Of a stretch of DNA of 64,000 nt, positions 4,768 to 59,253 are shown in pieces. Source of the stretch: a virus. The notes under the pieces are model-generated. The model saw only the letters and a list, made by a program, of their open reading frames with translations, did no database searches and had not been told where the DNA came from. Numbering within the stretch: position 1 is the stretch's first letter; every line of letters begins with the position of its first letter. Both the position numbers and the translations under genes were made by a program. The stretch spans positions 64,001-128,000 of IMG/VR virus record IMGVR_UViG_3300023179_000026; one strand, 5' to 3'.

Positions 4768-7488
4768 TCACTCAAAAGAAAACAATGAGTCAAATGTATT
4801 GTTGATATTGGTATTACGTTCTAAATCCCAACCTAAGACACCAAGTAAATTGTCAATCTTTTTATCCACCAATGTATATTCCATGTCACGATCATCAAAT
4901 GGCAAATCTATAAACCATTGTGGTAATCGTAGTTCATCTGTTGGATACGCCACACTTGTAAAACCTAATGCATTATTTCGTAATTTACATACAATAATTT
5001 TAGCACCGTTTGTTATTTTAGTACTATAATTATCATGATTAAGTTGTCTTAAAAAATTCCAATTGATTGAGGCACGAACATGACCTGGCATGTTTACTTT
5101 GTTATCTTTACTGCGATTTAATTTTTCTTCATACAATGTAAGCTTGTTTACTGCTTTAGGACTACCTTTGTTCCAACTTGGCATTGCACGTAGCTTATGT
5201 TTGAATGCTACAATCTTTTCAATAATATTTTCACGTGTAGAACCACTAAGTACATCTTCTAATACACTAAACAAAAATTCTTGTACAAATTTTGGTGTAT
5301 CAGCACGTTTCAAATCTAATCCCATGGCTTTAATTTTACCAAGCTTGCCATCCTTATCTAATCGTTTTCCTTCTTTATCATAGATATTCACCGCATAACG
5401 TTTCTTAGTAATAAACAACCCACGATCAGCAACCAACTCTCGCCCCGCTTTAATAATAGCACCATTGTTTTTTGGACAATGAAATGTATTGTACATAAAC
5501 TGTGGGAAACTATTATTCACTGTATTGCCAAGTTCGTCATAAATCATAATTGCGTGTTCTTTGCTCCAACTTTTGGCAAGTTCTACATCCTTTGACCATA
5601 TAGGCCATCCACTGAAATAGCATGAGTCAGTATCACCATATACAATGGCTTCACCTGTATGATCATAATTTCCTGTAATCAATTCATTTAAATAAGCACT
5701 CATATGTTTAACAATTTGTCTACCTGTTAAAGTAACACTTTGTCCAATACGAATGTCATAAAAACGACAATGTACATTTAACAATGCACCATATGCTGAA
5801 TTCAACAGAATTTTGCGTACTAATTGTCGTTTATCATAAAACTCAGCTTCTTCAGGGGTTTTAGCTTCTTTTAATTGTTTTTGAATTTGTTTACGTTCAT
5901 TATACCATCTCGTCAACAACCCAGGTATCACCCCCTCAGACTCATAGGTAAATATTGTACCATTAGCACTGAGCATCCATGGTTTACCACTATTAAAAAT
6001 TAATTCATGAATTTCAGCAGCACTTCCAACATCATGCCCACCTTTTTCCCAATCAATAGTTATAGTGGTTTCACGTTCTTTATTCATTACTGCGTTATAT
6101 TCTAATGAACCAAATAATCCTTCCCATAGGATAGGACCCATTTCACCTTCTACTTCTTCGTTTTCACTAACATTGCGATTCTTTTTCTTATCACGTGCTA
6201 ACTTTTGACTTTTATCATATAAGTATTTTTCAGTAGCTGTTTGACGTAATTGACCAATAATTGTTTCAGGTGCCATGTTTAATGCACGAATAACAGATGG
6301 ATAAAGCGAGTTCAAATCAACTGCAGCTATCCACTCGTGTATACCTTTTTTAGGAAAGGCAACATATGCACCTGCTGCCTTAGTTTCATCATCAGTTTCA
6401 CGTTTGATTTTGTCAGGTATGATTAACCCACGTGAATGTGCTTCATTAATCACAGCTTGTTCAATCATAGCAACACTGCCCATTACAGTAGGTAACAATA
6501 CTGTATTTTGATGTGCAATACTATTTGCTAAATCTAAAAATTTAAGCTTGTCGTGTATCTTAAATAACAACATTGTATCTTGTCTATTGTATTCAATAAA
6601 CGTTTTCCAATCATTGTTATACAGTTGGTCAAGCGTACCTTCATAGGGTGTTTTCTTTTCACCCACTTCCATTTCACCAATATAGTCTAATTTATAACTA
6701 TGTCGTTGTTCATAATTATACTTTTTGTATAATTCAAGATAATCCATATGAATACGACCAACTAAATCATATGTAACTTGTTTTTGGTCAAACTGTACGA
6801 ATTCACGTTGTCTAGGGTATTGGTTTAACAAACAAAAACGCATGGTATCTTCTTTAGACAAAACTTTAGTAACACGATTGACTAAGTATGGTATATCGTA
6901 ACCACTACTGTTCCATCCTGTCAAAACGTCTGCGTCTTGAATCAGTTCTAAAAATGCATCCAACATATCTGCTTCGTTATCAAATACCATAATATTTTCA
7001 AACGATTGTGTAATATTATTGATTTCTTCTTTTGATAATCCTTTTGGTGGAACACATAATGTGATTAGTGAGGTAATCCAATCAAGATACAGCGAAATTG
7101 AATTTACTGCGTTAAATGGATCATTAGGTGGAGCAAATCCATATTCAGGATCAAAGTTTACCTCAATATCAAAAAAACATGTATGTAGTTTAGGTGGAGG
7201 TATATCCAAATAATGATCAGCTAAACAACGAAAAACAGGATTAATGTCACTTTCGTATGTTTTCTTTTTGTTTATGAGGCGTAATTCTTTTTGAAATTCT
7301 GCACGTTTTGATGTAGTAAATTTAGTAAGTGGTTCACCGTCTACCCCACGATACTTACCTTTAGGGTCAGGATAATAAACTACATATTTTGCTTTATGTT
7401 CTTGGTAAACACGGTTAGCTTTTTCATCACGTTCAACGATGAATATAATATCTTTATCACGATCTAGTATTGCGTCAACATAACTCAT
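4768..7488 (-). CDS. polB: DNA polymerase family B with 3'-5' exonuclease
   Basis: Exo motifs FFDIEV, GWNSSGYDIPY, YNRQD; polymerase motifs DLNSLYPS, KILLNSAYG, YGDTDS, KKRYA. Confidence 0.97.
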   Translation of the reverse strand: MSYVDAILDRDKDIIFIVERDEKANRVYQEHKAKYVVYYPDPKGKYRGVDGEPLTKFTTSKRAEFQKELRLINKKKTYESDINPVFRCLADHYLDIPPPKLHTCFFDIEVNFDPEYGFAPPNDPFNAVNSISLYLDWITSLITLCVPPKGLSKEEINNITQSFENIMVFDNEADMLDAFLELIQDADVLTGWNSSGYDIPYLVNRVTKVLSKEDTMRFCLLNQYPRQREFVQFDQKQVTYDLVGRIHMDYLELYKKYNYEQRHSYKLDYIGEMEVGEKKTPYEGTLDQLYNNDWKTFIEYNRQDTMLLFKIHDKLKFLDLANSIAHQNTVLLPTVMGSVAMIEQAVINEAHSRGLIIPDKIKRETDDETKAAGAYVAFPKKGIHEWIAAVDLNSLYPSVIRALNMAPETIIGQLRQTATEKYLYDKSQKLARDKKKNRNVSENEEVEGEMGPILWEGLFGSLEYNAVMNKERETTITIDWEKGGHDVGSAAEIHELIFNSGKPWMLSANGTIFTYESEGVIPGLLTRWYNERKQIQKQLKEAKTPEEAEFYDKRQLVRKILLNSAYGALLNVHCRFYDIRIGQSVTLTGRQIVKHMSAYLNELITGNYDHTGEAIVYGDTDSCYFSGWPIWSKDVELAKSWSKEHAIMIYDELGNTVNNSFPQFMYNTFHCPKNNGAIIKAGRELVADRGLFITKKRYAVNIYDKEGKRLDKDGKLGKIKAMGLDLKRADTPKFVQEFLFSVLEDVLSGSTRENIIEKIVAFKHKLRAMPSWNKGSPKAVNKLTLYEEKLNRSKDNKVNMPGHVRASINWNFLRQLNHDNYSTKITNGAKIIVCKLRNNALGFTSVAYPTDELRLPQWFIDLPFDDRDMEYTLVDKKIDNLLGVLGWDLERNTNINNTFDSLFSFE

Positions 7489-7491
7489 AAA

Positions 7492-8123
7492 TTAAGCATT
7501 ATAAAGGAAATTACCTGATACACTTATTCTAGTACCATTAGAACTATAAAATGGATGAACAGAGTGGTTAAGACAAGAAGGAAAGATTAAACATTTATAT
7601 ATCATATTTTTATCAATTTGAATTTGGAACATTCCTAGACTGCCAAGTGGATCTGCATAATTAAAAATAAATGAGCCACCTAAGTTCCTTTTTGCAAAAC
7701 GCCCTGGGTTTAATTGTAGTTCTTCTTCTATATTATATGGCACTTCTAAATATATTACAAATGAAACTAGTCCTGAATGATTATGTATAGGATTAACCTC
7801 ATATTTTTTTTGAAAATTTACCCAACTATTACCAAGTTGTAATTCGTGATTATTCATATTTACAGTATGATAAGAATATAAATTTGTATAATCTACATAA
7901 CTATAAACGTATGGCAATAATAGATTGTTTAAATAATTATGACTTTTTTTAATTTATATTCACATTCAATTTGTCCTGCTAATGCGTGATTAGCAGGGTC
8001 ATATTTGGATGGATATATTTTAATTTCATTGATTTCTTCAATGATTGGAATAAGATCATTTTGTGTTAATTCTATTTCATAATAACCAAGAGTAAATATT
8101 GTTTTAAATTTTATAGAATTCAT
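7492..8123 (-). pseudogene. 2OG-Fe(II) oxygenase split by a -1 frameshift (or homopolymer error) at A7 run 7944-7950
   Basis: ORFs 7929-8123 and 7492-7917 join into one frame if one A is added (TTA AAA AAA AGT CAT). C-terminal part has HxH-S-G-x-x-S-x-V-x-Y, H-x-V-x-P and R-I-S-V-S-G-N motifs. Confidence 0.7.
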
Positions 8124-8381
8124 TTACATTGTTTTACCAACTGTAATTAAAATATTTTCCAATAGCTCGTGATCTTGACGTGCTTTACCTAATTCAGCCT
8201 TGTGTGCAATACGAATAGCTTTTTTAAGTACTGCTGCTTTAATATTCATTTCTTCTGCAATAGCTTTAACAGTATCACCCAAACCACTTTGTAGTGTATC
8301 GACCTCATGTAGCACTTGGCAACCTTCAGTAATTAAATGGGTAAGTTTTGCTTTTTGTTCTGCGGAAAATGTAACACTCAT
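8124..8381 (-). CDS. small DNA-binding protein, DsbA/GapR-like (tentative)
   Basis: 85 aa helical protein; start refined to ATG 8381 behind AAAGGAG; pattern resembles T4 DsbA/GapR (KAIAEEM...LKKAIRIAHK). Confidence 0.5.
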   Translation of the reverse strand: MSVTFSAEQKAKLTHLITEGCQVLHEVDTLQSGLGDTVKAIAEEMNIKAAVLKKAIRIAHKAELGKARQDHELLENILITVGKTM

Positions 8382-8453
8382 GTATAACTCCTTTGAGAAA
8401 GTACTTAGTGTACACGGTAATTGCAATAAATCAATCTTTTTTGGATAATCAAC

Positions 8454-8977
8454 CTATGCAAACAACTCTTTCAATCTTGGCATGACTGAATTTAAATTAG
8501 TATATAACAATCCAATACCACCTGCTTGGTTAAATGCATCAATTTTTTTAGGTGTGTCATCAATAAGGACAGCAGGTTGATGACCATAGTTAGCATATTT
8601 CCATTTGTTAGGTTCAAAAATGGCTTTTTAGCTACTTCCCATCCTAAATTACTAGCTAACCAATCACGTTTACCTATTTCACTTGCTTTACGACTGTTTT
8701 TAGGATCTACGCCATCGCTGCGTAGCGGTGCACTTAATATGCGCCAATCAATTCGTTTATTGTCCAACCATTCTATCAATCGCATACCATCAACCATAGG
8801 TGGTAAAGAAGCAAAAAAATCTTTAACAGCATTAGGTCCCAACTTTCGTAGGTTATTTACCCTGCTTTCTGTATCAGCACCATCATAATTTAAGATAGCC
8901 TTATTAAAATCAGCTAACACACCATCCATATCAACAAAAACAAATGGTTTGGCTTTCGACACTTCAAAAATTTTCAT
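8454..8977 (-). pseudogene. HAD-family 5'(3')-deoxyribonucleotidase, frameshifted at A5 run 8625-8629
   Basis: Motif I VFVDMDGVLADF in frame 0. The expected C-terminus (AIFEPNKWKYA...VLIDDTPKKIDAFNQAGGIG, TAG at 8454) lies in the -1 frame. Confidence 0.75.
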
Positions 8978-9402
8978 ACTCTACAATTCCCTATAACCTT
9001 AGTAATGGTTGTAAATTCACGTGCAATACGCTCATAAAACATTTCAGGTGGGCGTTCACTATAAGTACGATAACCCAAAGCAAGTTGACCCATGTCAACA
9101 TAATAGGATAAACTAGGCCAACGTTTTCTGTTGAGTTTTAACCCATCAATAAGTATACATTCTTCTGCTAGTCTTGTCAATGTAGCTTTTTTTGTTTCAC
9201 CCTCAGTGTTCATTGCTTCCATCAATTTTATGGCAATAGGTTCGTTATTCAGGTGTGGATTTTCCATATGTCTTGCAAACATGTGTACAGTAAATGCTTC
9301 AATTTCAGGGTCTAAATTGACACATGCAGCAGCTTCGGCGGCAATAATTACCTCGTAGCTATGCTTGACATAGGTCATCCAATGTTGCATATTAGTGTTC
9401 AA
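8974..9402 (-). CDS. hypothetical protein
   Basis: ORF track, overlapped with both neighbours. Confidence 0.6.
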   Translation of the reverse strand: MNTNMQHWMTYVKHSYEVIIAAEAAACVNLDPEIEAFTVHMFARHMENPHLNNEPIAIKLMEAMNTEGETKKATLTRLAEECILIDGLKLNRKRWPSLSYYVDMGQLALGYRTYSERPPEMFYERIAREFTTITKVIGNCRV

Positions 9403-10636
9403 GTAATAGAGTTATAATTACATCATTACGGTTAGCACTATCGTCTCCATCGCCTGGGACTACGACAACGTTCCAATATGGTTCGCCATTTGATTTTACA
9501 CCATCTTTAAATGTCATCATTTGGTCATAGGTAATAATCGTATTTGGTTTAATACCATATTTTTGGGCAGCACGTTGTTTAAATGTTTCCCACGCTTCAG
9601 CATTTTTCCAACGCAATTTATTATTTGCATCACGTCCCATCAAATCAGTAAACATTTCACGGTCTACAATTTCACTACGTTTGACTTCTTGACCTGTTTG
9701 TTTTTTATAGATATCAACTTTTTTGTATTCACCTGATTTAGCACCCATAGAAAAATTAATTCTAAAGTTTTGTGGACGCTGACTTGTTGCTACATCGCCC
9801 ATTTTAGTATAGGCGTAAAATTGTACGTCAGGAAACTTTCTAGCTACATCATACGCCAAGTTTAAATATTCAGGGCTAAAGAAATCACCCGCATCATGCC
9901 AACGAATAATAACTTGTGTACCCTTTTTCTGATATTTTTCCCTAGCTGATTCAATTTCACTTTCAAGCATTGCTTTCCATCCATCAGGATCATTTAATAG
10001 AAAGTTTAATGACCTAGATCCTGCTTCAGATGGTGGGGCATATTGCACATAACCACCCTTCATAGCATAACATACTTGGACGCATTTACCTGCGCCTGGG
10101 CAGGTGTTGACTACTACAAATTTTTGTCTATCTTCATCAACTGCTAAACCAACTAATGCAGGTAATCCAATGTTAAAAAATATACTACTGCTTCCATCAC
10201 TATGTTGCATTTTTTCATTTTGTTTAAGCAACTTTTTAGGACGTTGCATAACAGATGCCATTAGTTTTGGTAAATCATATAATTGATTATTTCCATCAAC
10301 AATAGGTACTGTTCCACTATGAATATATGGGCGTATTAACTTATCTTGTTTAAATCGTTTGTAAATGTCATATTCCTCACCTGACATTTTTCCAAGCTGT
10401 TTTTTACTTGGTCTACGATACTTTTTTTGTAATTCAGGACTAAGTTTTCTACGAAGATAATCAGTTAACTCATCTTCAGGATAATCACGGCGTGGCGCAC
10501 CCAAAAATTTTTCAGCTTCATCTAATTCTTGTTCATCTTGAACAAACTGTTGCAACGACATAATTTGTACTCCTGAGGCTGCGCCTGGGAAATCAGACTT
10601 TAATGCATTTTCAAATAATAGTTCGCTAATTTTCAT
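9392..10636 (-). CDS. Gp88-like protein (Cys-triad, radical-SAM-like) with N-terminal leader
   Basis: TCPGAGKCVQVCYAMKG, IRWHDAGDF and FYAYTK motifs; leader MKISELLFE...ELDE. Confidence 0.7.
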   Translation of the reverse strand: MKISELLFENALKSDFPGAASGVQIMSLQQFVQDEQELDEAEKFLGAPRRDYPEDELTDYLRRKLSPELQKKYRRPSKKQLGKMSGEEYDIYKRFKQDKLIRPYIHSGTVPIVDGNNQLYDLPKLMASVMQRPKKLLKQNEKMQHSDGSSSIFFNIGLPALVGLAVDEDRQKFVVVNTCPGAGKCVQVCYAMKGGYVQYAPPSEAGSRSLNFLLNDPDGWKAMLESEIESAREKYQKKGTQVIIRWHDAGDFFSPEYLNLAYDVARKFPDVQFYAYTKMGDVATSQRPQNFRINFSMGAKSGEYKKVDIYKKQTGQEVKRSEIVDREMFTDLMGRDANNKLRWKNAEAWETFKQRAAQKYGIKPNTIITYDQMMTFKDGVKSNGEPYWNVVVVPGDGDDSANRNDVIITLLLEH

Positions 10637-10655
10637 AGTAAAAATACCTTTACAG

Positions 10656-10661
10656 TATTTA
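10656..10661 (-). promoter_or_regulatory. late promoter motif TAAATA
   Basis: About 20 nt upstream of start 10636; motif recurs before many structural genes. Confidence 0.6.
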
Positions 10662-10668
10662 TTATAAA

Positions 10669-11370
10669 TTAACCAAATCCAAACATACCATAATGTTTGG
10701 ACATAGCATATGGAGCAATGAATACTTTACCCCCAATTTTTCTCCATTCAGTACAAAAATGATAATCTTCAGATAACAAATTTACATCAATACTTGTTTG
10801 AAAAAATGCATATATAGTTCTTCCTGTATATTCATTCCAATTTCCAATATAGGTAGGCGTATGTGAGGCAAGTTTTTGAAAAACTTTTCGTTTAATTAAC
10901 ATATAACCTGTACCTGCATGAAGTACTTCTTTAAGCTTATTAGATTCAATGTCAATTTTTGGACTTTCATGATCTACGGGATTAAAGATATACCATGTAC
11001 TACAAAGAGATAATTTGTCAGTTGGGCAACCATTTTTAACTGCATTTTCTACCCATTCCCAATTAATCATTTTAGACGGGTAAATTCCACATATTAAGTC
11101 AACATTCTCTTGTAACATACGAATAACATCAGGTGGATTAATAATTATATCAGCGTCAAGGAATAATAAATGAGTACAATCGGATACCATAAAATCATTG
11201 ACAAAATTATCTCTTGCACGTGTAATTAACGATTGGTCATACATAAAATGGTATTCAAAATGCCATTTTTTCTTTCTAAATTCTTCAACTAATTTTATAA
11301 CGGAGTCAGCGAATAACCCGTGACATTGACCACCATACATCGGTGTGGCTAGAAAAACTCTTGGTTTCAT
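10669..11370 (-). CDS. GT-A-like glycosyltransferase-family protein (paralog 1)
   Basis: LATPMYGG, SLITRARD, HLLFLDAD (DxD), GTGYMLIKR, LSEDYHFC. Confidence 0.65.
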   Translation of the reverse strand: MKPRVFLATPMYGGQCHGLFADSVIKLVEEFRKKKWHFEYHFMYDQSLITRARDNFVNDFMVSDCTHLLFLDADIIINPPDVIRMLQENVDLICGIYPSKMINWEWVENAVKNGCPTDKLSLCSTWYIFNPVDHESPKIDIESNKLKEVLHAGTGYMLIKRKVFQKLASHTPTYIGNWNEYTGRTIYAFFQTSIDVNLLSEDYHFCTEWRKIGGKVFIAPYAMSKHYGMFGFG

Positions 11371-11426
11371 TATTACTCCACGTAAGTATGCTTATTTACG
11401 TGATTCAAAATTATAATTAAATTTTG

Positions 11427-13730
11427 TTAGGATGAGCCAAAAAACTTATTCATCAAAGCTTTTTGTTTTTTAGGTTTTGCTCCAAGTACAGGACTAATAT
11501 TAGCTACCTTGTCAGTGCCACTTAAATATTTTGGGTTACGTTTGTCCTCTTTAGTATAACGTGGGTCTTTAGGATCATACTCAGTACCAAACGCACTCTT
11601 AACTTGTGACGAATTGAATATGATATAAGACATATCTATATAGTCAGCTTGTTTTTGCAAATACTGATGCGCTTCTTGCTCAGCTTCTTCAGGTGTATCA
11701 CCTTCACCAATAGGTAAAGTAGGCATAACATTATCAGGTAAATATGCTACGTACTTTGATCCTTCTTTTTTAATCGTAAAATTAATGCGCTCATCAGGTC
11801 GCAATGTTCGCTTACCTTCATTAGTATTACGATATTGTATACCATCATATCCCGCATCAAACAATGAACGTGCTAATTCAGCATAGATTGTTGCTTTACA
11901 ATCATCCCAATCCATGTCACGATCTCTACGAATTGCATCAAGTTCGTTATATTCTTTTTGGTTAATAATCTTTTTCTTAAATAAAAAATTCATAACTTGA
12001 CGTAAATGTTCTTCATCAGGACCAAATATGTCAGGCATCGTAAATGGGTTAGTAATCTTTAAATAAACAGGAATTACACGTGCTCCACTATATTTGGCAA
12101 ACTCATTAGCTGCTTCACGATTGCCAAAATGTATACCAAAATCACGATATAAATTTTTAAACGTTGAAAAATCATTAGATGTACCATGATATACAATCAT
12201 AGGAGCACCATTGGTATCAACTACTTTACTATTGCCAAACCACGCTCTTAAATTTTCCTCACGACCTTCTTCTAGTTCTTTTAGAAAACTCATTGACTCT
12301 TTGTTAATATTAGGATTAGTTGGGTTAAATTCACCTGTATTAAATACTGATTTAATTTGTGTATTATCAAATGCAACAATCTCTCTAATATCACCTATCT
12401 TAGCCCTACCCTGAAATATTATGCCATCATATCCTTCACTTTGTAATTGTTTCTTATATTGTATTGCTTTACTCATAGGCCATTTGTTCTCAATTTCATC
12501 AATCAATGATAACGGTTCAACTTTTGGCTTTTGTATGGACAAATATACAGGCATGATAACAGCATCGTCTTTGTCAAAACCACGTCCTGCATAACGTTCA
12601 GCATAAGATGGGTCATCCGTAAAAAAATGCCCTAGATGTTTTTGTGCCGTGTTAAATTTGGGATAGTTTTTTAATTTTCTGCCTTTCTGAAACACACTGA
12701 AGTCTCTATCAGTACCATGATAAACTCGTAATGGCTTACCACTTGCATCTACAATTTTACTATTTTTAAACCAATTTTTAAAATTTTCTTCAGATTTTAT
12801 ATCAATATTTGTTGCACTTTTAAGTTTAAGTTTAGGTTTTTTCTCTGCAGGTCTAGGTGTGTCAAAATCCACATCAATAACGTCAACTTTTTCTTCTTTA
12901 GTAATATCAGGTTCATCCCTACCAAATGTACCAACATTATATATAGACTTGATTTGATATTGTTCAAATGGGCGATAAGTTAAAATAATGGGTGTACCCT
13001 CAGCACCAAGTTCTAACTCTTTTCCATCACGTGGTTCATATTTCTGTGCACCTGCTTCAAAAACATCTTTTAAAATGACCCCATCATATCCCATACCTTG
13101 TAGGTAACTTACAATATCTTCACTATCTGCAATAGTATATGTATCTATAACCGTATTGTCTAGTGCATCCTCAATCGAACTAATATCGTCTGCTTCACCC
13201 CATGTGTCAATTTGATCGGAAAGGTCACGAAATCCTTTTATTCTAAAACCATCATCATCATAAGCATTAATTTCAAATCTTGCGCCTGTTTTGTATATGA
13301 TTTCATCTAAATCATATATCATATAGGACACATCTCTCCAACCTAGTTTTTTACGTCCACCATCAGGTACATTTAGATCGCTAGGCACCGTATTAATAAA
13401 ATCTATTAATGATATTGTTTCGTTATAACGGGTAAGGTCTAATGGTTTAACAATACGTAAATATGCTGCGATTACAGTAGAACCACTACCATATTGTCTT
13501 GTATCTAAATGTCTAGCATATACACTAGCTGCTGCAGGGTCATTCGTAAATGATGGTACTGCACGACCTTGTGTTAATTTAAATTCTGTGGCAGTAGGTC
13601 GCTTACGTGTACCACGATATACAACAAGTGGGTTGCCATTACTATCAACCACTTTACTATTACCAAACCAACTACGAAATGCTTTTGTCTCTCTAGCCTT
13701 TTGGTACTCTAATAACTGCCCAATTTTCAT
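11427..13730 (-). CDS. protein with three tandem ADP-ribosyltransferase-like (ART-PolyVal-type) domains
   Basis: Three repeats of WF(G/K)NSK(V/I)VD..G.P..VY(R/H)GT ... V.(A/P).YL.I.. ... GYDG(V/I).. ... Q(I/V)KS. Confidence 0.82.
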   Translation of the reverse strand: MKIGQLLEYQKARETKAFRSWFGNSKVVDSNGNPLVVYRGTRKRPTATEFKLTQGRAVPSFTNDPAAASVYARHLDTRQYGSGSTVIAAYLRIVKPLDLTRYNETISLIDFINTVPSDLNVPDGGRKKLGWRDVSYMIYDLDEIIYKTGARFEINAYDDDGFRIKGFRDLSDQIDTWGEADDISSIEDALDNTVIDTYTIADSEDIVSYLQGMGYDGVILKDVFEAGAQKYEPRDGKELELGAEGTPIILTYRPFEQYQIKSIYNVGTFGRDEPDITKEEKVDVIDVDFDTPRPAEKKPKLKLKSATNIDIKSEENFKNWFKNSKIVDASGKPLRVYHGTDRDFSVFQKGRKLKNYPKFNTAQKHLGHFFTDDPSYAERYAGRGFDKDDAVIMPVYLSIQKPKVEPLSLIDEIENKWPMSKAIQYKKQLQSEGYDGIIFQGRAKIGDIREIVAFDNTQIKSVFNTGEFNPTNPNINKESMSFLKELEEGREENLRAWFGNSKVVDTNGAPMIVYHGTSNDFSTFKNLYRDFGIHFGNREAANEFAKYSGARVIPVYLKITNPFTMPDIFGPDEEHLRQVMNFLFKKKIINQKEYNELDAIRRDRDMDWDDCKATIYAELARSLFDAGYDGIQYRNTNEGKRTLRPDERINFTIKKEGSKYVAYLPDNVMPTLPIGEGDTPEEAEQEAHQYLQKQADYIDMSYIIFNSSQVKSAFGTEYDPKDPRYTKEDKRNPKYLSGTDKVANISPVLGAKPKKQKALMNKFFGSS

Positions 13731-14167
13731 CCACGGTCTTTTTTCAATATGCTACGTAGCATCCATGAATGTTTTGCGTGACTATCAATACGTCCTGCTA
13801 TAAAATCAGCAATACCTTGCTCATCTTCTGCTTCACATTGATGGAATGTTTCTTTTAATAATACAATAATTTTTTGATTATCTTCGTACAATTCTGCCAT
13901 CATTAACTCAGCACGTGGGATTTGTTGTTGCTCATCAATAATACTTAACTCTTGATACCTTGTCATTGAGCCAGGCGCATATGAGTCTAACTGACGAATT
14001 ATTTCAGCTAATTGATCAATACTACCATATACTTCATTATATAAGTCACCTAAAAATGCGTGATACTGTGGAAAGTTTGGTCCTTCTACGTTCCAATGAA
14101 ACCCTGCTGCCTTAATATAAAAAGCAAATGATGTTCCTAACACTTGCTTTAACTTATCTTTTAACAT
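13727..14167 (-). CDS. dps: Dps / ferritin-like DNA protection protein
   Basis: FHWNVEGPNF.QYH.FL.DLY...IDQLAE and ...KHSWML ferroxidase-family motifs. Confidence 0.92.
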   Translation of the reverse strand: MLKDKLKQVLGTSFAFYIKAAGFHWNVEGPNFPQYHAFLGDLYNEVYGSIDQLAEIIRQLDSYAPGSMTRYQELSIIDEQQQIPRAELMMAELYEDNQKIIVLLKETFHQCEAEDEQGIADFIAGRIDSHAKHSWMLRSILKKDRG

Positions 14168-16217
14168 TATTTTTACCTTCTAGCATATTTTTTTGTGCTT
14201 CATGACCTTCCATATACTCTGCTACATCTTTAATAAGTTCATCAGCACGTGTGATATGGTCTGAGACCCAACCTGGCAAGCCTTGTCCTTCACTTCTACC
14301 TTTAATTATCTTAGCAAGTGACATTGCATTTTTAATGGTAGATAATAAACTATTTACTGCCATTGATACTTCATGGTCAGGTTCCATGCGCTTAGCTTTA
14401 ACTACATCACCACGCATACGCATCTTACCAGGCATTACTATGAGGTCTTGTTCATTTAATCCTTCTTCATCAGAATATTGTGCATCACGTAATGCATCTT
14501 CAAAAATTTCATCTAATCCATAAATTGCACTTTCTAATTCATGCTTAGCTTCATAAACACGGCTATTATGATAATTAAAATCATCCATGTCTAAGTTATA
14601 AGTTTTTATTAGTTCTTCAATTTCTACCATAATTTCATTTACGGTATTATCGTATGCAATTCCTTTAGTAATTTTTCTAGCTTGCATTAAGGCACGTTCT
14701 AAATCATCTGCACGACCTTCGTTAATACTTTCGTTCTTAGATTTGTTACCCCAATTTTTTGCACCTGCTTTACGACATTTAACTAAAGCACCACTAGCAT
14801 ATGCACTAGGCCAAATTTTATAACGACTTTTTACCTTATGGTAGCATGCATCTTTTTTACCTTCAGTAAATAATGCTTCACTGACCATTTCACCATTACA
14901 TTGTGGGCAAATACCTTCTTTGACATAATATTCAAGACTTTCATTCTTAGTCTTGTTGCTTACCATATCAGCTTTACCTTGACGTTGCGGGTTTGGATCT
15001 TCACGGCGTTTTTTACGTACTGCTGCTGCAATAGCTTTTTTACCACCACTAGCACGTAATGATGCTGCCTTTTCTTTACTTAAGCATTTTGGTTTACCTT
15101 CACCTGCTTTACGTTCGCCACACTTACCAATACGCTCACCTTTAGTATTGTAACGATCCCATCCACCGCCACCTGCGCCACCTTCACCACCTTTGCCAAA
15201 CCATGCACGTAAATCTTCGCTTAATTGTTCAGCAATTTCACCTTCACTAAATTCTTTGCCAACAAGTTTATTACCTGTAACACCTTGAATAAGTGCCCAT
15301 GCACGTTGGAATTCTTTTTCTTTAATTAATTGGTTTAGTATTTCTTTTTGACGTGGATCTGCCATTTTAAAGAATTTAACCATTTCCATTGCACCGATAT
15401 TACCTTCATAACCTAGTTCCATCAATGCTTCTTCATTAGTATGAGATTGGTATTCATCATAATCCATATACATATCGGTATCACGATCATAATACTTACC
15501 TTCTTTAGGATCGTAATAAACAATCTTACCTGATTTTAAACGAAATGGTCCTTCTAACCCTTGGTCTGACATATCTGTATAACGTTCTTTATCAATTGGA
15601 GTTGATATTTTCCAACTTTCCTCTACATTTTGCTCTTTGTTGAAAAATGATACTTTTGGCAAACGGTTAAGTGCCCTAGAGAACCCGACAACAGATTGGT
15701 TGCGTTTTTCTGCAGGGCGTTTAGTTGGGTTCATGTCGTGCTTTTGTGCGTCTGCGGCAACTGCTTTGGCGTAACGTAAAACAGTAGCAGGTGACAGTTC
15801 ATTTATTTGGTTATCGCCTTCCCCCACACCTTCTTTCCTAATACCAAGTGTACCCGCAGGATTACCTCCACCAAACATACTAGCAAATGCATCGCTTGCT
15901 TGTTGTTTAGTATCTGCTTTTTGTTGTTTTTTTACTTCTTTCTTACTCGTAACCTTTTTAAGCATTGTTTTAAACTTATCATCATCTGTTGTTGGAGTAG
16001 TAGCTTCTGCCACAGTCTTTTTCTTTTTGCTACCTGCCCAATTACCCCACTCTGAAACACCACGCTCTACACTATTCATGTATTTTTTACCACTATCTGC
16101 AGTCTCATCCGTTTTTTCACGTTTGACTGTTTCTTTGAATAATGGTGTGGCAACAGTAGCAACTGAACCTGCTGTCATTTCATTAATTTTATCTAAGGTT
16201 TTACGAATATCTGACAT
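14154..16217 (-). CDS. modular 687-aa polyprotein, putative internal head/cargo protein
   Basis: Short unrelated modules separated by (I/L/V/F)-x-E sites; late TAAATA motif at 16240-16245. Confidence 0.65.
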   Translation of the reverse strand: MSDIRKTLDKINEMTAGSVATVATPLFKETVKREKTDETADSGKKYMNSVERGVSEWGNWAGSKKKKTVAEATTPTTDDDKFKTMLKKVTSKKEVKKQQKADTKQQASDAFASMFGGGNPAGTLGIRKEGVGEGDNQINELSPATVLRYAKAVAADAQKHDMNPTKRPAEKRNQSVVGFSRALNRLPKVSFFNKEQNVEESWKISTPIDKERYTDMSDQGLEGPFRLKSGKIVYYDPKEGKYYDRDTDMYMDYDEYQSHTNEEALMELGYEGNIGAMEMVKFFKMADPRQKEILNQLIKEKEFQRAWALIQGVTGNKLVGKEFSEGEIAEQLSEDLRAWFGKGGEGGAGGGGWDRYNTKGERIGKCGERKAGEGKPKCLSKEKAASLRASGGKKAIAAAVRKKRREDPNPQRQGKADMVSNKTKNESLEYYVKEGICPQCNGEMVSEALFTEGKKDACYHKVKSRYKIWPSAYASGALVKCRKAGAKNWGNKSKNESINEGRADDLERALMQARKITKGIAYDNTVNEIMVEIEELIKTYNLDMDDFNYHNSRVYEAKHELESAIYGLDEIFEDALRDAQYSDEEGLNEQDLIVMPGKMRMRGDVVKAKRMEPDHEVSMAVNSLLSTIKNAMSLAKIIKGRSEGQGLPGWVSDHITRADELIKDVAEYMEGHEAQKNMLEGKNNVKR

Positions 16218-16261
16218 GATGGAATTCCATAATATCTAGTATTTATTCGCTATGAATTAAT

Positions 16262-17671
16262 TTAGAACTTACCTGATGGCTTTGCTATAGGTGGTATACC
16301 ACTACGTTTAATCTTACCTAAACCTAATTTTATAGCATTTTGTCTAATACTATCAGGTTTTATATCAACGGTTAATGCTGTTTTAAAACGTGGGTCATCT
16401 TTTTCTGTTTCACTAGGGATATATCCTGAAGCCTCATTAACATTAAATGTAGGATCCACTTTTTGACGTTTCATTCCTTTAGGTTGGTTAGGATCAATCG
16501 GGTCAATATCAGTAGTGGTTAAACCTGTTGCCTCTAAATCTTTTATATACTTGTGCTCCGTATCTTCATCACCAAATGACAATATGGTGCTAGGTGGTCC
16601 TTTTCCAAAATCATGCTTACCTAAACCTTTCATATTACTAATATGTTGTCCTAACTTATACCAATCATATACATCACTTACATCTACCCTAACCGTACCT
16701 TTTGGCATTGTGGGTTTAAACTCAGGACCAGGTGGCACTCCATTAGGGTCATAATCATCACGTAATTTACTATAATGTTTTCTATTTTTAGCCAAGTTTT
16801 TATATGCCATTTCAGTAGCTAAACTACGCACACTAGTATTTGCCATTTCAAACTTAATACCACGCTTTAGTTCACTAATGATATCATTTCTACTACAACC
16901 ATGCATCTTTGCTAATTCACTAATGCTATATATAGGTTGTTCAACATTTTTACCAACCTTTTGCTCCATACTCATTTTTTCACTATGTATTTCATTATAA
17001 GTATCACGCAAACGATGCAATAAACCACTTGTACGGAATGCTTTAAATGCTATATTTTCAGGTGAAAACTCACCTTGCAAATCCAACCCTGCTTTTCTAT
17101 ATTTTCTAATTGTATCTAGTAAGTCTTGAATTTTGTCCATATCTCTAGCTTGTAATGCTAGTTCAGCTACTTGTGCTAATTTTTCAAACTTTAACTTACT
17201 TGCAGGTTCATTAATATCAGCAACTCGTTTAGTTGGAAATTTTATCCAACGATCTTTTAATACGCTGTATTCACCACGACTGACAACAGGGTCAGCAGTA
17301 TCTTGTACGTAAAGTTCTACTTCATACCCACCAATAGTAATATCATGCTGCATGTTCCACAATATTTTCTTAGCATGAAAAAGTTCAGAATAAATCTCAA
17401 TGTTTTTTAACTTATCTATATCAACAAGTATATGTAAATCTATATCGCTATGTGATGTATAGGTATATGAAGCATTACTACCACTTAGTGTAATATCTTT
17501 TACATCTATATTATTCACACCGAGATGTTCCATAAAATCATCTGCAATTTCTAATAATCGGTCACGCACAGCAGGAATCATGTGTTCATCCCTAAAAATA
17601 GCAGGATTTAATTCATCATGAAATTGCACTGCATTTGTTAATTTGAAATTTTCAAGTTCTTTTAAGTTCAT
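16262..17671 (-). CDS. Pol-beta-superfamily nucleotidyltransferase fused to a DUF5661-like module and further C-terminal modules
   Basis: ITLSGSNASYTYTSHSDIDLHILVD (GS...DxD) and third acid in EVELYVQD; ELKRGIKFEM...HYSKL module; start refined to ATG 17671. Confidence 0.75.
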   Translation of the reverse strand: MNLKELENFKLTNAVQFHDELNPAIFRDEHMIPAVRDRLLEIADDFMEHLGVNNIDVKDITLSGSNASYTYTSHSDIDLHILVDIDKLKNIEIYSELFHAKKILWNMQHDITIGGYEVELYVQDTADPVVSRGEYSVLKDRWIKFPTKRVADINEPASKLKFEKLAQVAELALQARDMDKIQDLLDTIRKYRKAGLDLQGEFSPENIAFKAFRTSGLLHRLRDTYNEIHSEKMSMEQKVGKNVEQPIYSISELAKMHGCSRNDIISELKRGIKFEMANTSVRSLATEMAYKNLAKNRKHYSKLRDDYDPNGVPPGPEFKPTMPKGTVRVDVSDVYDWYKLGQHISNMKGLGKHDFGKGPPSTILSFGDEDTEHKYIKDLEATGLTTTDIDPIDPNQPKGMKRQKVDPTFNVNEASGYIPSETEKDDPRFKTALTVDIKPDSIRQNAIKLGLGKIKRSGIPPIAKPSGKF

Positions 17672-17684
17672 AGATATATTTAGC

Positions 17685-17718
17685 AAAAAAACCGTGAGGA
17701 ATTTCTTCCATCACGGTT
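17685..17718 (-). terminator. intrinsic terminator
   Basis: AACCGTGA...TCACGGTT stem followed by a T-run on minus strand, downstream of gene 17739-18728. Confidence 0.75.
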
Positions 17719-17738
17719 ATAAGTACAACAATTAAAAA

Positions 17739-18728
17739 TTAAGCTTTTTCGGGTTCTTTGCTGCTAGGATCAATAGCTGCATGTGTATCTAATGCAGGGT
17801 TGACCGTAGTTGGTTTATAGGGAACTTCTTTTACTGAAGAATCTATAATAGTTACTTTACCATTTTGTTCCATAGCACCAACAAAAGCAGGTCCGATATG
17901 ATTAAACAAGTATTCTTGATTTTCCATGCAAAACACATATGAACCACTATGACGTAGCAATACTCGTTTATCAACCCAAATACGTCCACCTAAGTCACGC
18001 CAATTTTCACACATTGTCCAATCTTCACTATAATAACGATTTTGACGAACCGCAGTATCAAAAAATGTAGCTAAATGTTGGTCATAAACAGGATCTAAAC
18101 CAATATCATTTTTGTAAGGTTTTACAGCAGGATGCTTTTTAAGTTTTTCAAACACATGACGTTTTGTTAATAGAAAACCTGTACCTGCTTTACTTACTTC
18201 TTGTAGCCCATCAGCACCTTCTTCCGCACCTTCAAAACCATTAACCACCCATTTAATGGGCATAGTTTTCATAGGGTATAAACCACCAATCACGTCTACA
18301 TTACGATTTAACAATACTAGTAAGTGCCATGGTTCCCAACCAATATCAGCATCAACAAAAAACAAATGTGTAGAATCTTTTTGATGTAAAAATTTAGCAG
18401 TTAATGTGTTACGTGCTCTGCTGATAAGTGATTCATTAACCATGGTTTCTAATGTCCAATCCACCCCAAGCTGACGTGCGGTATTGGCAAACTTGATAAA
18501 TGACATAAAGGTAGATTCAGTCAACATACCGCCATAGCATGGCATTGCCACGTGCGCTTTTGTAGTACGCAAGAAATCTACGTTTACTTGTACTTGTCCT
18601 TGTTGTGGGGCTGCGGCTTTTTTAGCCTCTTCTTCGGAAACTGTACCACCAATGCTTGCAGCTTGTGATGCTTTATCAGCAAGCTCTTGTACAGCTTCTA
18701 CGGGAATTTTTGCTTGTTCTGTTGTCAT
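17739..18728 (-). CDS. GT-A-like glycosyltransferase-family protein (paralog 2)
   Basis: VAMPCYGG, NESLISRARN, HLFFVDAD, GTGFLL, YSEDW; start refined to 18728 behind GAGGA; TAAATA at 18754-18759. Confidence 0.65.
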   Translation of the reverse strand: MTTEQAKIPVEAVQELADKASQAASIGGTVSEEEAKKAAAPQQGQVQVNVDFLRTTKAHVAMPCYGGMLTESTFMSFIKFANTARQLGVDWTLETMVNESLISRARNTLTAKFLHQKDSTHLFFVDADIGWEPWHLLVLLNRNVDVIGGLYPMKTMPIKWVVNGFEGAEEGADGLQEVSKAGTGFLLTKRHVFEKLKKHPAVKPYKNDIGLDPVYDQHLATFFDTAVRQNRYYSEDWTMCENWRDLGGRIWVDKRVLLRHSGSYVFCMENQEYLFNHIGPAFVGAMEQNGKVTIIDSSVKEVPYKPTTVNPALDTHAAIDPSSKEPEKA

Positions 18729-18780
18729 ATTGATCCTCAAAAATATGTAAGGATATTTACACAGAAAAAATGAGGTGAAA

Positions 18781-18954
18781 TTATTTTTCTTCTAGATAGT
18801 CAGTGTTTTGTTTATTTTCTTGAACTAACATTCTTTTGTTTTGACGTAAAGCTTCACGAATTAAATGCATAAGACGTAACTTTTGCTCAGGTGTTGCACT
18901 GCTCAAAAGTGGTTTAGTTTCATGGATTAATTTTGCTAAAGCTTCTTTTTTCAT
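18781..18954 (-). CDS. small hypothetical protein (57 aa)
   Basis: Below ORF-track cutoff; MKKEALAKLIHETKPLL...DYLEEK fills the gap exactly. Confidence 0.5.
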   Translation of the reverse strand: MKKEALAKLIHETKPLLSSATPEQKLRLMHLIREALRQNKRMLVQENKQNTDYLEEK

Positions 18955-18955
18955 A

Positions 18956-19294
18956 TTAGTACACTATAGAAATATTTATGATTCCGCTTGTAAAAGTGGT
19001 TGCTTTGCCTCGCATCCAAATCCAATTACCTGTTATACTTTGTGGAGCAGCATTTGAAAAATCAATGGTGATAAGATCAACCCAATCTTTTTCCGCACTT
19101 GGCAATGGTACTAAAGAACCTTGTATGACAACATTACCTGTTACCGCACCTGTATTAGAATAATTTACAGTAGTAACATAGGTAGGACGTAAGAAATAAG
19201 ATACGCCCTGAACTTTGTCACCTGTCCATGTTCCACTGATGTTAGCCCCGTTTACTGCATTGGCTATGGTTTCAGTTGTTGATACCAATGCCAT
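18956..19294 (-). CDS. hypothetical beta-rich protein, possibly virion-associated
   Basis: ORF track; T/N/G-rich beta-sandwich-like composition. Confidence 0.55.
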   Translation of the reverse strand: MALVSTTETIANAVNGANISGTWTGDKVQGVSYFLRPTYVTTVNYSNTGAVTGNVVIQGSLVPLPSAEKDWVDLITIDFSNAAPQSITGNWIWMRGKATTFTSGIINISIVY

Positions 19295-19461
19295 TATTGT
19301 GTTTCCACTTCAACAATAACACTATCACCTAATAGTTCTTGAACAATGTCTTCTAAGTTATTAGTAAAATCACTATTAGTTAAAGGTGGTGCTGATTTAT
19401 CACTTTCCTTTACCAATCTACTTAAACGTATAAGTACGACTTCTTCATGAATCTTAGCCAT
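19294..19461 (-). CDS. small hypothetical protein (55 aa)
   Basis: Below cutoff; MAKIHEEVVLIRLSRLVKE...VEVETQ, GGAGG SD, TAATG coupling to next gene. Confidence 0.55.
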   Translation of the reverse strand: MAKIHEEVVLIRLSRLVKESDKSAPPLTNSDFTNNLEDIVQELLGDSVIVEVETQ

Positions 19462-19481
19462 AAAAGCCTCCTGTTATATAT

Positions 19482-20165
19482 TTATGCTGCTACAGGAGGT
19501 TTTTGTATTGCATATTCCTTTTTAATATGTTGGTAAAAGTGCATGTAATAAATTGACTGATATGCTTCATTATCATAATCAAAAAACAAATTACCATCAT
19601 TCCATCTTCCTGCTTTACCTCTAGTATCCCAATGTAAGAAAAAATTTAGATTTGCTGATGGGAAAAAAAGATTTTGGTGTTTGAGAAAAAAGTCACGTAA
19701 TTCAATTATCTCATCCGAACTGTATACCTTACTTTTAAAATACACCCTAAATTGATGTTTTGGGTTTTTATGATATATAACTTCTTTTGGTCTAGAGTAT
19801 GTATGTAATACTTCTTGAACCGTTGTAGGTTGATTTAAAATCTTAGCAAGTTCTTCTACAATATCATATCTTGTTGAATATACAGTAATAGAATTACGAT
19901 GTGTTAAGATTTTAAAGTTTCCAATATTTTCACCTTTCCACACAAGAACTTTTCTAAGTTCTATTAAATTATTAGCATATTTGATACGGATATTAGAACG
20001 TTCTAATTCACGATCAACATGACTGATATCGTACCATCGATGTAATCCAACTTGTTCTAAATTAAATTCAACCTTATATTTGTACTTGTCATACCAAAGC
20101 CAATTTTGCTTAGTATTTTGAACAAGCGTTGTATAACTAAACCCTGATAATACCATCTGTTCCAA
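19482..20165 (-). CDS. hypothetical protein
   Basis: ORF track. Confidence 0.6.
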   Translation of the reverse strand: MEQMVLSGFSYTTLVQNTKQNWLWYDKYKYKVEFNLEQVGLHRWYDISHVDRELERSNIRIKYANNLIELRKVLVWKGENIGNFKILTHRNSITVYSTRYDIVEELAKILNQPTTVQEVLHTYSRPKEVIYHKNPKHQFRVYFKSKVYSSDEIIELRDFFLKHQNLFFPSANLNFFLHWDTRGKAGRWNDGNLFFDYDNEAYQSIYYMHFYQHIKKEYAIQKPPVAA

Positions 20166-22413
20166 TTATGTCATACTTTTCTATTCTATTTTCTACATTA
20201 AACTCAATTTCTGAACCATTATAATGTACCTGAATGATTGCATCTTTTACACGTTCAAACAGTATCTTCTTACTAATTGGTACTCTAATTAATTCATCAA
20301 TTTTTCTAGCTAATGGTCTAGCACCCATCTTGTCATCATAACCAACCTTAGCAATATGTTCAACTGCTTGCTCACTCAAATTCAGTGTAATCTTATGCTG
20401 ATTAAACAATTGTGTTTTAAGCTCATTAACAAACTTGATAACAATTTTCTTAATTGCTAGTGTGTCTAGTTTCTTAAATTTGCAAATTAAGTCAATACGA
20501 TTACGTAACTCAGGCTTGAAGAATTCTTTCATTGCTTTATCATCTTCACCTGTTTTTACATTTGACCCAAAACCAATGTTATTACGCTCACTATCACGTG
20601 CTCCTAAATTACTTGTCATGATAATAATTGTATTTTTAGCATCAACTGTTTTACCATTAGTGCTAGATATTCTTCCTTCATCTAACAATTGTAAAAATAA
20701 GTTATAAACATCAGGGTGTGCTTTTTCAACCTCATCAAACAGTAAGATAGAATATGGGTTTTTACTTAAATCATTGATAATCTTTCCACCACCTAAATTA
20801 CCTTCACCATACCCAACATACCCAGGAGGTGCCCCAATCAACGCAGCTACACTGTGCTTTTCTTGATATTCACTCATATCATAACGTAATAGTGGCATGT
20901 TAAGATGTTCGCTTAATAGTCTTGCTGTTTCTGTTTTACCACTTCCTGTTGGTCCTAAAAACAAGAAGCTTGCCATAGGTTTCTTTTCATTAGAAATACC
21001 TGCAAAACTAACGTAAATACGTTCTAAAATTTGTTCAATTGTATTGTCTTGTCCATACAATTTTTCTTTAATATTTGCATCTAGGTTAATCATTCGTTCT
21101 GAAGAATCATTGGTTAGTTTATCAGCAGATACATTACACATTCTAGTAACTTGTTCTTTAATATTATCTTCACCAATAATAGCACCAACGTTGTTTAATG
21201 TACGTTGTTTAGCACAAGCAGCATCAAGTAAATCAATAGATTTATCAGGATTTTTACGATCATGAATATACCTTGCACTCATGGTTACTGACTCTTTAAT
21301 AGCTTTGTCAGTAATAACTACTTGGTGAAACTTTTGTAAACGATCACTCAAGCCTGTTAAAATCTTGATAGTTGTTTCCGTAGTAGGTTCATCAATGCTA
21401 ACACGATAAAAACGGCGCATCAGAGCACGATCTTTTTCAAATGATTCGTAATATTCTTCCCATGTTGTACTAGCAATTACTTTTAAGTTACCTTTAGTAA
21501 TAGCAGGTTTAAGCATGTTAGCAAAATCAACCGTAGTACCACTGCTATTACCACTACCTCGCATGGTATGTGCTTCATCAATAAACAGTATAGCCTTTGG
21601 TTTGCTAGCAAGTGCTTCCAATACTTGTTTAACTTTTTCTTCAAAATCACCACGATATTTACTACCTGCTAATAGTGAACCAATTTCAAGTGAATATACT
21701 TGATGATCATATAAAAATAATGGTACTTGCTTGTCTAATATTTTTTGTGCTAATCCTTCAGCTAGGATAGTTTTTCCAACACCTGGGTCGCCAACAAGTA
21801 GTACATTAGACTTGAATCGTTTAGCTAATACATTAACAATGTCATCAACTTCTTTCTCTCGTCCAATAAGTGGTTCAAGCTTGTTACGTTCAGCAAGGTC
21901 ACTAAGATTAGTTGTATATTCTTCTAATACTTCATTAGCTTGTTGTTCAGTCATTTTTCCGTTTTTACCACCACGATGCGCTTTATTCCAATAAGCAAGG
22001 AATTCTGCCCTGCTTACACCCCATTTTAATAAGAAATAGTGAGCATGACTATTGGTTTCTTGTAAAATTGACACGTAAATATCAATCAATTCAATTTGTC
22101 TGCGTCCTTGAAATAATACTTGTGTTACTGCTCGATTAAAAACACGGTCTAAACTATGTGTTTTTTTAGGTGAAATAGGTGAACCATCTTCATTAGGTTC
22201 AACTTTAATGTTTGTCATAGAATCTAAGTAAGTATCAACTTCTTGAATAAGGTTTTCAGTATCCACACCGAATTCATCTAAGTGAGTACGAAATGAATCG
22301 TAAGTAATTAAACTAAGTAAAGCATGCTCTAAGGTAACATAAGCATGATTTTTACTTTTGGCTATTTCAATAGCATGTTCGATTAATTTTTCGATTTCAG
22401 GGTTATTCTGCAT
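20137..22413 (-). CDS. clpA: ClpA-like Hsp100 AAA+ ATPase
   Basis: Clp N-domain, two Walker A motifs (GDPGVGKT, GPTGSGKT), FIDEAH, LFDEVEKAH, IGF loop (NNIGFG); no ClpB-type middle domain; start refined to 22413. Confidence 0.92.
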   Translation of the reverse strand: MQNNPEIEKLIEHAIEIAKSKNHAYVTLEHALLSLITYDSFRTHLDEFGVDTENLIQEVDTYLDSMTNIKVEPNEDGSPISPKKTHSLDRVFNRAVTQVLFQGRRQIELIDIYVSILQETNSHAHYFLLKWGVSRAEFLAYWNKAHRGGKNGKMTEQQANEVLEEYTTNLSDLAERNKLEPLIGREKEVDDIVNVLAKRFKSNVLLVGDPGVGKTILAEGLAQKILDKQVPLFLYDHQVYSLEIGSLLAGSKYRGDFEEKVKQVLEALASKPKAILFIDEAHTMRGSGNSSGTTVDFANMLKPAITKGNLKVIASTTWEEYYESFEKDRALMRRFYRVSIDEPTTETTIKILTGLSDRLQKFHQVVITDKAIKESVTMSARYIHDRKNPDKSIDLLDAACAKQRTLNNVGAIIGEDNIKEQVTRMCNVSADKLTNDSSERMINLDANIKEKLYGQDNTIEQILERIYVSFAGISNEKKPMASFLFLGPTGSGKTETARLLSEHLNMPLLRYDMSEYQEKHSVAALIGAPPGYVGYGEGNLGGGKIINDLSKNPYSILLFDEVEKAHPDVYNLFLQLLDEGRISSTNGKTVDAKNTIIIMTSNLGARDSERNNIGFGSNVKTGEDDKAMKEFFKPELRNRIDLICKFKKLDTLAIKKIVIKFVNELKTQLFNQHKITLNLSEQAVEHIAKVGYDDKMGARPLARKIDELIRVPISKKILFERVKDAIIQVHYNGSEIEFNVENRIEKYDIIGTDGIIRV

Positions 22414-43405: not shown

Positions 43406-43451
43406 TTGTATAGAATTCCATTAATATTTGTATTTATCAGAACATAAGTAT

Positions 43452-59225: not shown

Positions 59226-59253
59226 AATATTACTCTCTAGTTGATAGGAGTAT

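Follow-up and report, generated by a model that had tools for sequence, protein, structure and literature searches.

Three joined ADP-ribosyltransferase modules of the ART-PolyVal family in a single protein of a T4-related jumbo phage fragment

We analysed a stretch of 64,000 nucleotides (the window), which covers positions 64,001 to 128,000 of the IMG/VR virus record IMGVR_UViG_3300023179_000026, and within it a single uninterrupted open reading frame (ORF) of 767 residues on the minus strand at window positions 11427-13730, whose product is called P0001 here. The results indicated that P0001 almost certainly consists of three complete modules of the ART-PolyVal family (Pfam PF18760, 'ADP-ribosyltransferase in polyvalent proteins') joined end to end. 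It adds a member to a phage effector family that has been described before and does not constitute a new kind of system. The explanation that we favour overall, and consider somewhat probable, is that P0001 is a fused, late-expressed and head-packaged effector with three ADP-ribosyltransferase (ART) modules.

Membership of PF18760 is defined by a score above the curated cut-off, and P0001 scored 196.6 bits against a cut-off of 31.2 bits (E 3.9e-58), with three matched stretches. A profile of our own, built from single-module homologues, placed the modules at residues 4-279, 310-478 and 486-727, and BLASTP comparisons of the modules with one another gave E values of 2e-13, 1e-14 and 3e-13, which are far beyond chance. 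The initial annotation of this DNA had proposed three homologous domains at 11427-13730, and both the PF18760 stretches and the comparisons between modules bore this out. All of the motifs that it quoted were found in place (YRGT at residue 38; YHGT at 337 and 514; PSFT at 59; GHFFT at 367; GIHFG at 532), together with the module ends ITKEE (residues 276-280, nucleotides 12905-12891), INKES (residues 475-479, nucleotides 12308-12294) and YTKED (residues 725-729, nucleotides 11558-11544). A Pfam scan of P0001 at E<=0.01 revealed no family besides ART-PolyVal, and no MuF, portal or metallopeptidase fusion; in addition, neither a further ART-PolyVal gene nor a second copy of the C-terminal tail was present on the 137-kb fragment. 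The parts of the gene, in window positions, are as follows.

11427-13730, minus strand: three-module ART-PolyVal ORF, 767 residues (from the ORF, Pfam and our own profile)
13707-13730, minus strand: N-terminal leader MKIGQLLE, residues 1-8, ending in L-X-E, with a low predicted local distance difference test score (pLDDT) and a resemblance to a T4 capsid-targeting leader
12891-13694, minus strand: module 1, residues 13-280, with R39-S60-T251 and Asp216 of GYDG, a helical insert of roughly 110 residues (about residues 100-212) and the end ITKEE
12789-12890, minus strand: Lys/Pro-rich linker, residues 281-314, variable and disordered, short or absent in most orthologues
12294-12788, minus strand: module 2, residues 315-479, a minimal module with H338-F369-E450, Asp435 and the end INKES
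12255-12293, minus strand: apparent relic start and leader MSFLKELEEGREE, residues 480-492, with L/I-X-E at E485 and E488, BLASTP likeness to the module 1 leader and low pLDDT
11544-12254, minus strand: module 3, residues 493-729, with H515-H534-S701, Asp629, two inserts (about residues 573-625 and 639-698) and the end YTKED
11430-11543, minus strand: basic C-terminal tail of 38 residues (730-767), ending FFGSS

The AlphaFold2 model of the whole of P0001 had a pLDDT of 70.5, with three confident cores and disorder at residues 1-10, 279-310, 477-489 and 728-757, and module 1 modelled by itself reached 84.7. The structure-search lists for the P0001 models consisted almost exclusively of ADP-ribosyltransferases. 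Residues 315-464 of module 2 superposed on residues 846-1002 of PARP1 (Z 7.8, root-mean-square deviation 3.8, 123 aligned residues), while module 1 matched PARPs at Z 6.7, followed by relatives of diphtheria toxin, exotoxin A, cholix toxin, AcrIF11, RES and ParT toxins. The top Foldseek match of the whole model was AcrIF11 (6kyf; probability 0.96, E 0.015), against which module 1 gave a VIA Z of 4.7. These Z values are moderate, and the assignment depends mainly on the uniformity of the match lists and on the Pfam match; each module has an ART fold of the PARP/diphtheria-toxin (H-Y-E) type. Sequence and profile searches of the PDB with P0001 and two family alignments gave nothing significant, and no solved structure is related to it by sequence. 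The ART fold had been claimed in the initial annotation, with structure prediction named as a check, and the resemblance of the models to PARP, diphtheria toxin and AcrIF11 supports the claim. Among the comparisons that it named, the one with AcrIF11 held at the level of the fold only, DarT was absent from the matches listed, and the Alt/VIP2 family gave no match.

The module 1 model also matched chain B of the cyanophage A4 pre-ejectosome structure 9k3a, which is gp27 (L006 20119-25269), at a Foldseek E of 4.6e-3 and a VIA Z of 5.9 over 166 aligned residues. This structure was set aside as direct evidence for a packaged ART, given that Pfam gave no match for A-4L gp27 and that the paper on it is silent on ADP-ribosylation. 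A4 gp27 may contain an unrecognised ART-like domain within a solved ejection protein, which we record as a lead only.

Traces of fusion were found at the junction of modules 2 and 3, where INKES is followed by MSFLKELEEGREE and then by WFGNSK, the start of module 3. BLASTP pairs the true N-terminus with this junction (LLEYQKARE to LKELEEGRE), and module 3 seems, from its sequence, to retain the start and leader that it once had. Ten orthologues of P0001 were found, which are 65-99% identical to it overall. One of them, P0004, shares 97% identity in module 1 and 98% in module 3 and only 40% in module 2, which is of the H-F-W type; in most relatives, an H-F-W module likewise stands in place of the Glu-bearing module 2, while modules 1 and 3 are conserved. 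As judged from these alignments, the middle module alone is exchanged for a different one among close relatives. The 38-residue C-terminal tail is the best-conserved part among the orthologues (92-100% identity) and is still 92% identical in an orthologue whose modules 1 and 3 have diverged to 61-66%. This exceptional conservation suggests that the tail has a fixed partner on the phage side.

The source is a linear IMG/VR virus record of 136.9 kb, which CheckV estimated to be 39% complete. It encodes a T4-type family-B DNA polymerase that is 42-49% identical to those of jumbo phages of 350-490 kb, as well as a long tail sheath, a tail tube and virion proteins, and 24 tRNA genes are clustered on its minus strand at G000 5385-22057 (loci L001 and L002), which lies outside the window. 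Taken together, the polymerase, the tail and virion proteins and the tRNA genes mark the record as a fragment of a T4-related jumbo myophage. The gene order around the ART gene, which is conserved in two relatives, runs from a nucleotidyltransferase-like gene through a large unknown protein, the Dps-like gene, the ART gene, a glycosyltransferase-like gene and a GP88-family gene onward to the DNA polymerase. The features that bear on the expression of the ART gene are the following.

13727-14167, minus strand: ferritin/Dps-like gene (Pfam PF00210, E 1.8e-23); its stop and the start of the ART gene overlap by 4 nucleotides
16239-16246, minus strand: ATAAATAC, a late-promoter-like motif 29 nucleotides upstream of gene 14154-16217, the head of the overlapping string that ends in the ART gene
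10655-10662, 25321-25328, 43430-43437, 50693-50700 and 59250-59257, minus strand, and 61687-61694, plus strand: other copies of ATAAATAC in the window; all of them, including 16239-16246, lie 15-32 nucleotides upstream of gene starts

The Dps-like gene overlaps the preceding gene 14154-16217 as well. From this arrangement, which is conserved in relatives, the Dps-like and ART genes are likely to be co-transcribed and translationally coupled. Throughout the 137 kb, 14 of the 20 copies of ATAAATAC lie within 60 nucleotides upstream of a start on the same strand, where about 4% would be expected, and among the genes that they precede are gene 14154-16217, the GP88-family gene and genes for tail and virion proteins. 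In the relatives L007 and L008, only two such motifs occur in 18 kb, and they stand, as here, before the GP88-family gene and the gene at the head of the ART string. ATAAATAC is probably the late promoter of this phage, a variant of the T4 motif TATAAATA, and its resemblance to the T4 late promoter suggests that the ART string is expressed late. The exact T4 motif TATAAATA was rejected as the promoter of this phage, as it is not enriched (7 found, 12.6 expected), and scans for sigma-70 promoters and terminators around the ART gene gave no more than chance. Apart from its position in this string, the product of gene 14154-16217 has 687 residues here and 819 and 908 residues in two relatives. 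It matched no Pfam family, and a DLRAWFG stretch in it recalls how an ART module begins.

In T4, an N-terminal leader of about 10 residues targets internal proteins to the prohead, and the protease gp21 removes it after L/I-X-E; gp21 also trims both ends of Alt, which is a packaged ART (PMC9026906). The only L/I-X-E sites of P0001 that lie in flexible segments are E8 (LLE8), E485 (LKE485) and E488 (LEE488), and among the module junctions a site of the protease type is present only between modules 2 and 3. Of 160 N-terminal leaders across the family, 95 contain [LI]xE, compared with 43.5 +/- 5 in shuffled sequences; the motif mostly stands 10-12 residues ahead of the conserved Trp. This pattern was set after the data were seen, and related proteins account for many of the leaders counted. 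The same motif is present in 43% of N-terminal copies and in 13% of internal copies of the module, which indicates a feature of the N-terminus and not a part of the fold. A stricter pattern, picked post hoc after inspection of the data, matched 5 of 192 N-termini and none of 722 internal Met positions, and did not match the leader of the ART itself. One stand-alone protein of the module 1 type begins with MKTFKQYLME.

Leaders of this kind were also observed on unrelated ORFs of the fragment, at window positions 9392-10636, 46901-47518 and 57822-58451 and at G000 13399-13956, 40411-40758 and 88160-88702. The GP88-family ORF (by Pfam) at 9392-10636 begins with MKISELLFE and the ORF at 46901-47518 with MKTFRQYLAE; other starts that resemble capsid-targeting leaders are MRISDLFE, MKCYEIIKE, MRFREFIIE and MKKEIINE. 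By their N-termini, these ORFs are a candidate set of head-packaged cargo proteins.

In the explanation that we favour, formerly separate single-module genes would have fused to give P0001, whose three modules would be NAD+-using transferases with different host targets (proteins, possibly nucleic acids). The ART gene and the two overlapping genes upstream would form one late transcription unit, and the short N-terminal leader would bring P0001 into the phage head, from which, in the manner of T4 Alt, it would pass into the cell along with the DNA. If a prohead protease of the T4 type acts on it, cuts would be predicted after LLE8 and after LKE485 or LEE488, which would yield modules 1 and 2 as one product and module 3 as another, with no cuts at the TKE and NKE motifs. 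By analogy with T4 Alt, a role delivered by the virion is plausible; for late expression together with head packaging the case appears evenly balanced, and cleavage at the leader sites appears doubtful.

Several points weigh against this explanation. First, the immediate neighbours of the gene (Dps-like, glycosyltransferase-like, GP88-family and DNA polymerase) are non-structural, and the promoter reading is based on one enriched motif. Second, MKIGQLLE is a weak match to a leader of the T4 type, and the leader count carries the qualifications given with it above. Third, the fragment carries no prohead protease or capsid gene, and the existence and specificity of such a protease are assumed; searches of the record for gp21 protease and gp23 capsid (PF03420, PF07068) gave no match, the fragment being 39% complete and the control genomes also unresponsive. 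Fourth, the classical catalytic Glu is absent from modules 1 and 3, and the His is also absent from module 1. In addition, no experimental paper on any member of PF18760 was found.

Some of these points would suit a different scenario, in which P0001 is neither packaged nor cleaved and works as a three-headed enzyme in the cytoplasm of the producing cell, comparable to T4 ModA and ModB, which act without being packaged. The replication and auxiliary character of the neighbouring genes, none of them a head gene, the lack of a MuF, portal or metallopeptidase fusion and the weakness of the leader match are all in its favour. However, the late-promoter-like motif is one that the ART string has in common with tail and virion genes, the enrichment of leaders is specific to the N-termini of the family, and the extreme conservation of the tail points to a partner on the phage side. 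We regard this scenario as possible and rather less probable than packaging in the head.

The residues at the classical active-site positions differ among the three domains, as had been noted when the gene was first annotated. At canonical positions 1, 2 and 3, module 1 has R39-S60-T251, module 2 has H338-F369-E450 and module 3 has H515-H534-S701, while the Asp of GYDG is kept in all three (D216, D435 and D629). In the superposition of module 2 on PARP1, E450 lies in the gap-free end opposite a residue that we take to be E988 of PARP1, and GHFFT lies, by the superposed ranges, opposite what is presumably the 'G-x-Y-F-A' strand of PARPs. The same superposition places the distal-strand residues quoted in the initial annotation (LTY, REI and MSY) at the position of the canonical catalytic Glu. 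The active site of the family has been described as H-Y-D, with His on strand 1, Tyr on strand 2 and an acidic residue on strand 5 (Iyer et al. 2017, PMC5512222), and the 'D' of that description may be the Asp of GYDG.

A census of subclasses was made with 844 complete domains from 387 fetched homologues, aligned to the profile with which the modules of P0001 had been placed. Position 1 was His in 91% and Arg in 7% of the domains, position 2 was Tyr, Phe, Trp, His or Ser, and position 3 was Glu in only 21%, whereas the Asp of GYDG was present in 98%. The most frequent combinations were H-Y-E in 106 domains, H-H-S in 83, H-F-V in 40 and H-F-E in 34, while R-S-T was found in 19 and R-S-E in 9. 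R-S-T and R-S-E form a distinct group, in which Arg at position 1 pairs with Ser at position 2. The module 1 type was also found as stand-alone proteins of 270-310 residues with the same helical insert, in which R39, S60, D216 and R253 are invariant or nearly so. Each of the residue patterns in P0001 is a recurrent and conserved subclass, and therefore the modules are not decayed copies; the suggestion of one inactive copy in the initial annotation is not favoured.

These counts also bear on the scenario of one enzyme with two pseudo-enzymes, in which only module 2 (H-F-E) would be catalytic and modules 1 and 3 would serve as binding, decoy or scaffold domains. In modules 1 and 3 the classical Glu is indeed replaced, by T251 and S701, and the His too is missing from module 1. 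However, R-S-T and H-H-S are recurrent and tightly conserved, orthologues keep modules 1 and 3, whereas most relatives have H-F-W in place of the Glu-bearing module 2, and Glu is far rarer in the family than the Asp of GYDG. In addition, PARP-family enzymes without Glu at the third position remain active mono-ARTs. Such a division into one enzyme and two pseudo-enzymes appears to us improbable.

The initial annotation had read ITKEE, INKES and YTKED as Glu cleavage sites in linkers, and the ends of related proteins did not support this reading. Stand-alone proteins with a single module, when aligned, stop exactly at ...QIKSxxGNxGxFDPxNPxI-x-K/E, and 51 of 80 homologues of <=330 residues end 14-22 residues past QIKS, mostly on Glu or Lys. 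The 225-residue gp190 of the Dickeya jumbo phage JA13, an isolated phage, ends at the same position of the module, and the annotation around the homologues in this phage and in a Dolichospermum phage gave no functional hint. The source names of the homologues were equally uninformative about hosts. In giant arrays, the module end reads ...NPDIRFS, without Glu, and the next module follows directly. As stand-alone proteins end at this position and the giant arrays have no Glu there, the three motifs are the native tail of the module. Prohead-protease sites are L/I-X-E in T4 and S/A-X-E in phiKZ (PMC9026906), and the P3 residues of the three motifs (T, N and T) match neither. A polyprotein, from which a Glu-specific prohead protease would release three separate enzymes in the head or the cell by cutting after ITKE, INKE and YTKE, would draw on the conservation of the motifs in orthologues, their position beside disordered segments, the C-termini of stand-alone homologues that such cuts would restore and the processing of T4 Alt at both ends by gp21, yet it is very unlikely in view of the P3 misfit, the same tail on stand-alone proteins, where cutting serves nothing, and the Glu-less tail of the giant arrays. 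Cleavage at the TKE and NKE motifs is correspondingly given little credence here.

A more speculative extension of the favoured explanation, which we hold to be rather unlikely as a whole, is that of a fused 'cargo cassette'. In this extension, the single-module ART-PolyVal genes of T4-related jumbo phages would carry capsid-targeting leaders, and the prohead protease would still cut the relic leader inside P0001, with the result that the head would receive modules 1 and 2 as one piece and module 3 as another. Strains would trade the middle module in step with changing host targets or defences, and R-S-T would represent an independent switch from His to Arg and from Tyr to Ser within a family of the H-Y-E type. 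Classical ARTs are split into R-S-E and H-Y-E enzymes, and the R-S-T subclass would mirror that split.

Further genes in the window were observed away from the ART string. A gene of the HNH/homing-endonuclease type (phrog_3339, phrog_559) lies on the plus strand at 50764-52377, between the tail-sheath gene and the region of the tail-tube gene. An ATP-dependent protease-like AAA+ protein of 766 residues (phrog_4871) is encoded at 20137-22437, and the gene at 22843-23634 has an N-terminus like a DnaJ J-domain; these two look like a chaperone and protease set encoded by the phage.

The closest known systems are the multi-copy ART-PolyVal proteins. According to Iyer et al. 2017 (PMC5512222), no other macromolecule-modifying domain is as common in polyvalent proteins as this ART family, which occurs in one to several and up to 12 copies per protein and for which packaging and injection were predicted. 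In our searches, P0001 had 11,472 relatives at E<=0.001 in a representative library, with up to 18 matched stretches per protein, and two or more ART modules were present in 205 of the 387 fetched homologues. With several effector domains in one phage polypeptide, P0001 has the make-up of a polyvalent protein, and its architecture is that of 'multiple ART copies' and not a mixed one. It shares with the multi-copy proteins of phages and conjugative elements ('N4-ART', Tox-ART-HYD2-like; PMC5512222) the Pfam family, the several copies per polypeptide, the phage origin, the modular shuffling and the predicted host-modifying role delivered with the DNA. However, it consists of ART modules only, with no peptidase, MuF, primase, RNA polymerase or other effector domains, and is small at 767 residues; it has R-S-T, H-F-E and H-H-S in place of the stated H-Y-D; and its N-terminal leader resembles those of T4, a relic leader lies inside it, and its basic C-terminal tail is highly conserved. 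What is of particular interest in P0001 is that a protein of this size combines three subclasses, that its middle module is swapped among relatives, and that it has both a relic leader and a conserved tail.

Compared with T4 Alt, P0001 is likewise an ART of a T4-related myovirus, probably encoded by a late gene, with a short leader ending in L/I-X-E and a proposed injection with the DNA. It differs in belonging to another ART clade, with no match to Alt/VIP2 (the R-S-E clade), and in having three modules of catalytic type instead of one. The motifs of the Alt/VIP2 clade are R, S-T-S and E-x-E; module 1 shares the R and the S but has Thr at the position of the Glu, and the resemblance to Alt would be functional only. 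The T4 internal proteins IPI-III also begin with a short leader that ends in L/I-X-E, and similar leaders are found on unrelated genes of this phage, whereas their mature parts have no sequence homology to P0001 and a protease gene is not on the fragment. AcrIF11 (6kyf) shares with P0001 a minimal phage-encoded ART fold, and the likeness stays at the level of the fold, the PDB sequence and profile searches having given no relation in sequence. The best superpositions were with members of the PARP family (PARP1, tankyrase, PARP10 and PARP4), and most domains of the family have a third position without Glu, as PARP10 does. 'H-Y-hydrophobic' PARPs such as PARP10 are mono-ARTs that lack the catalytic Glu, and by analogy their substrate-assisted mechanism may be relevant to ART-PolyVal. 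In contrast to these modules, PARPs are eukaryotic and stand in other domain contexts, and the identity is only 10-15%.

P0001 leaves the current picture of phage effectors unchanged. ART-PolyVal is among the largest uncharacterised families of phage enzymes, and P0001, with separable modules of 165-270 residues, distinct and conserved subclasses, natural swap variants and a simple packaging hypothesis, is a convenient model for the targets and the injection of this family.

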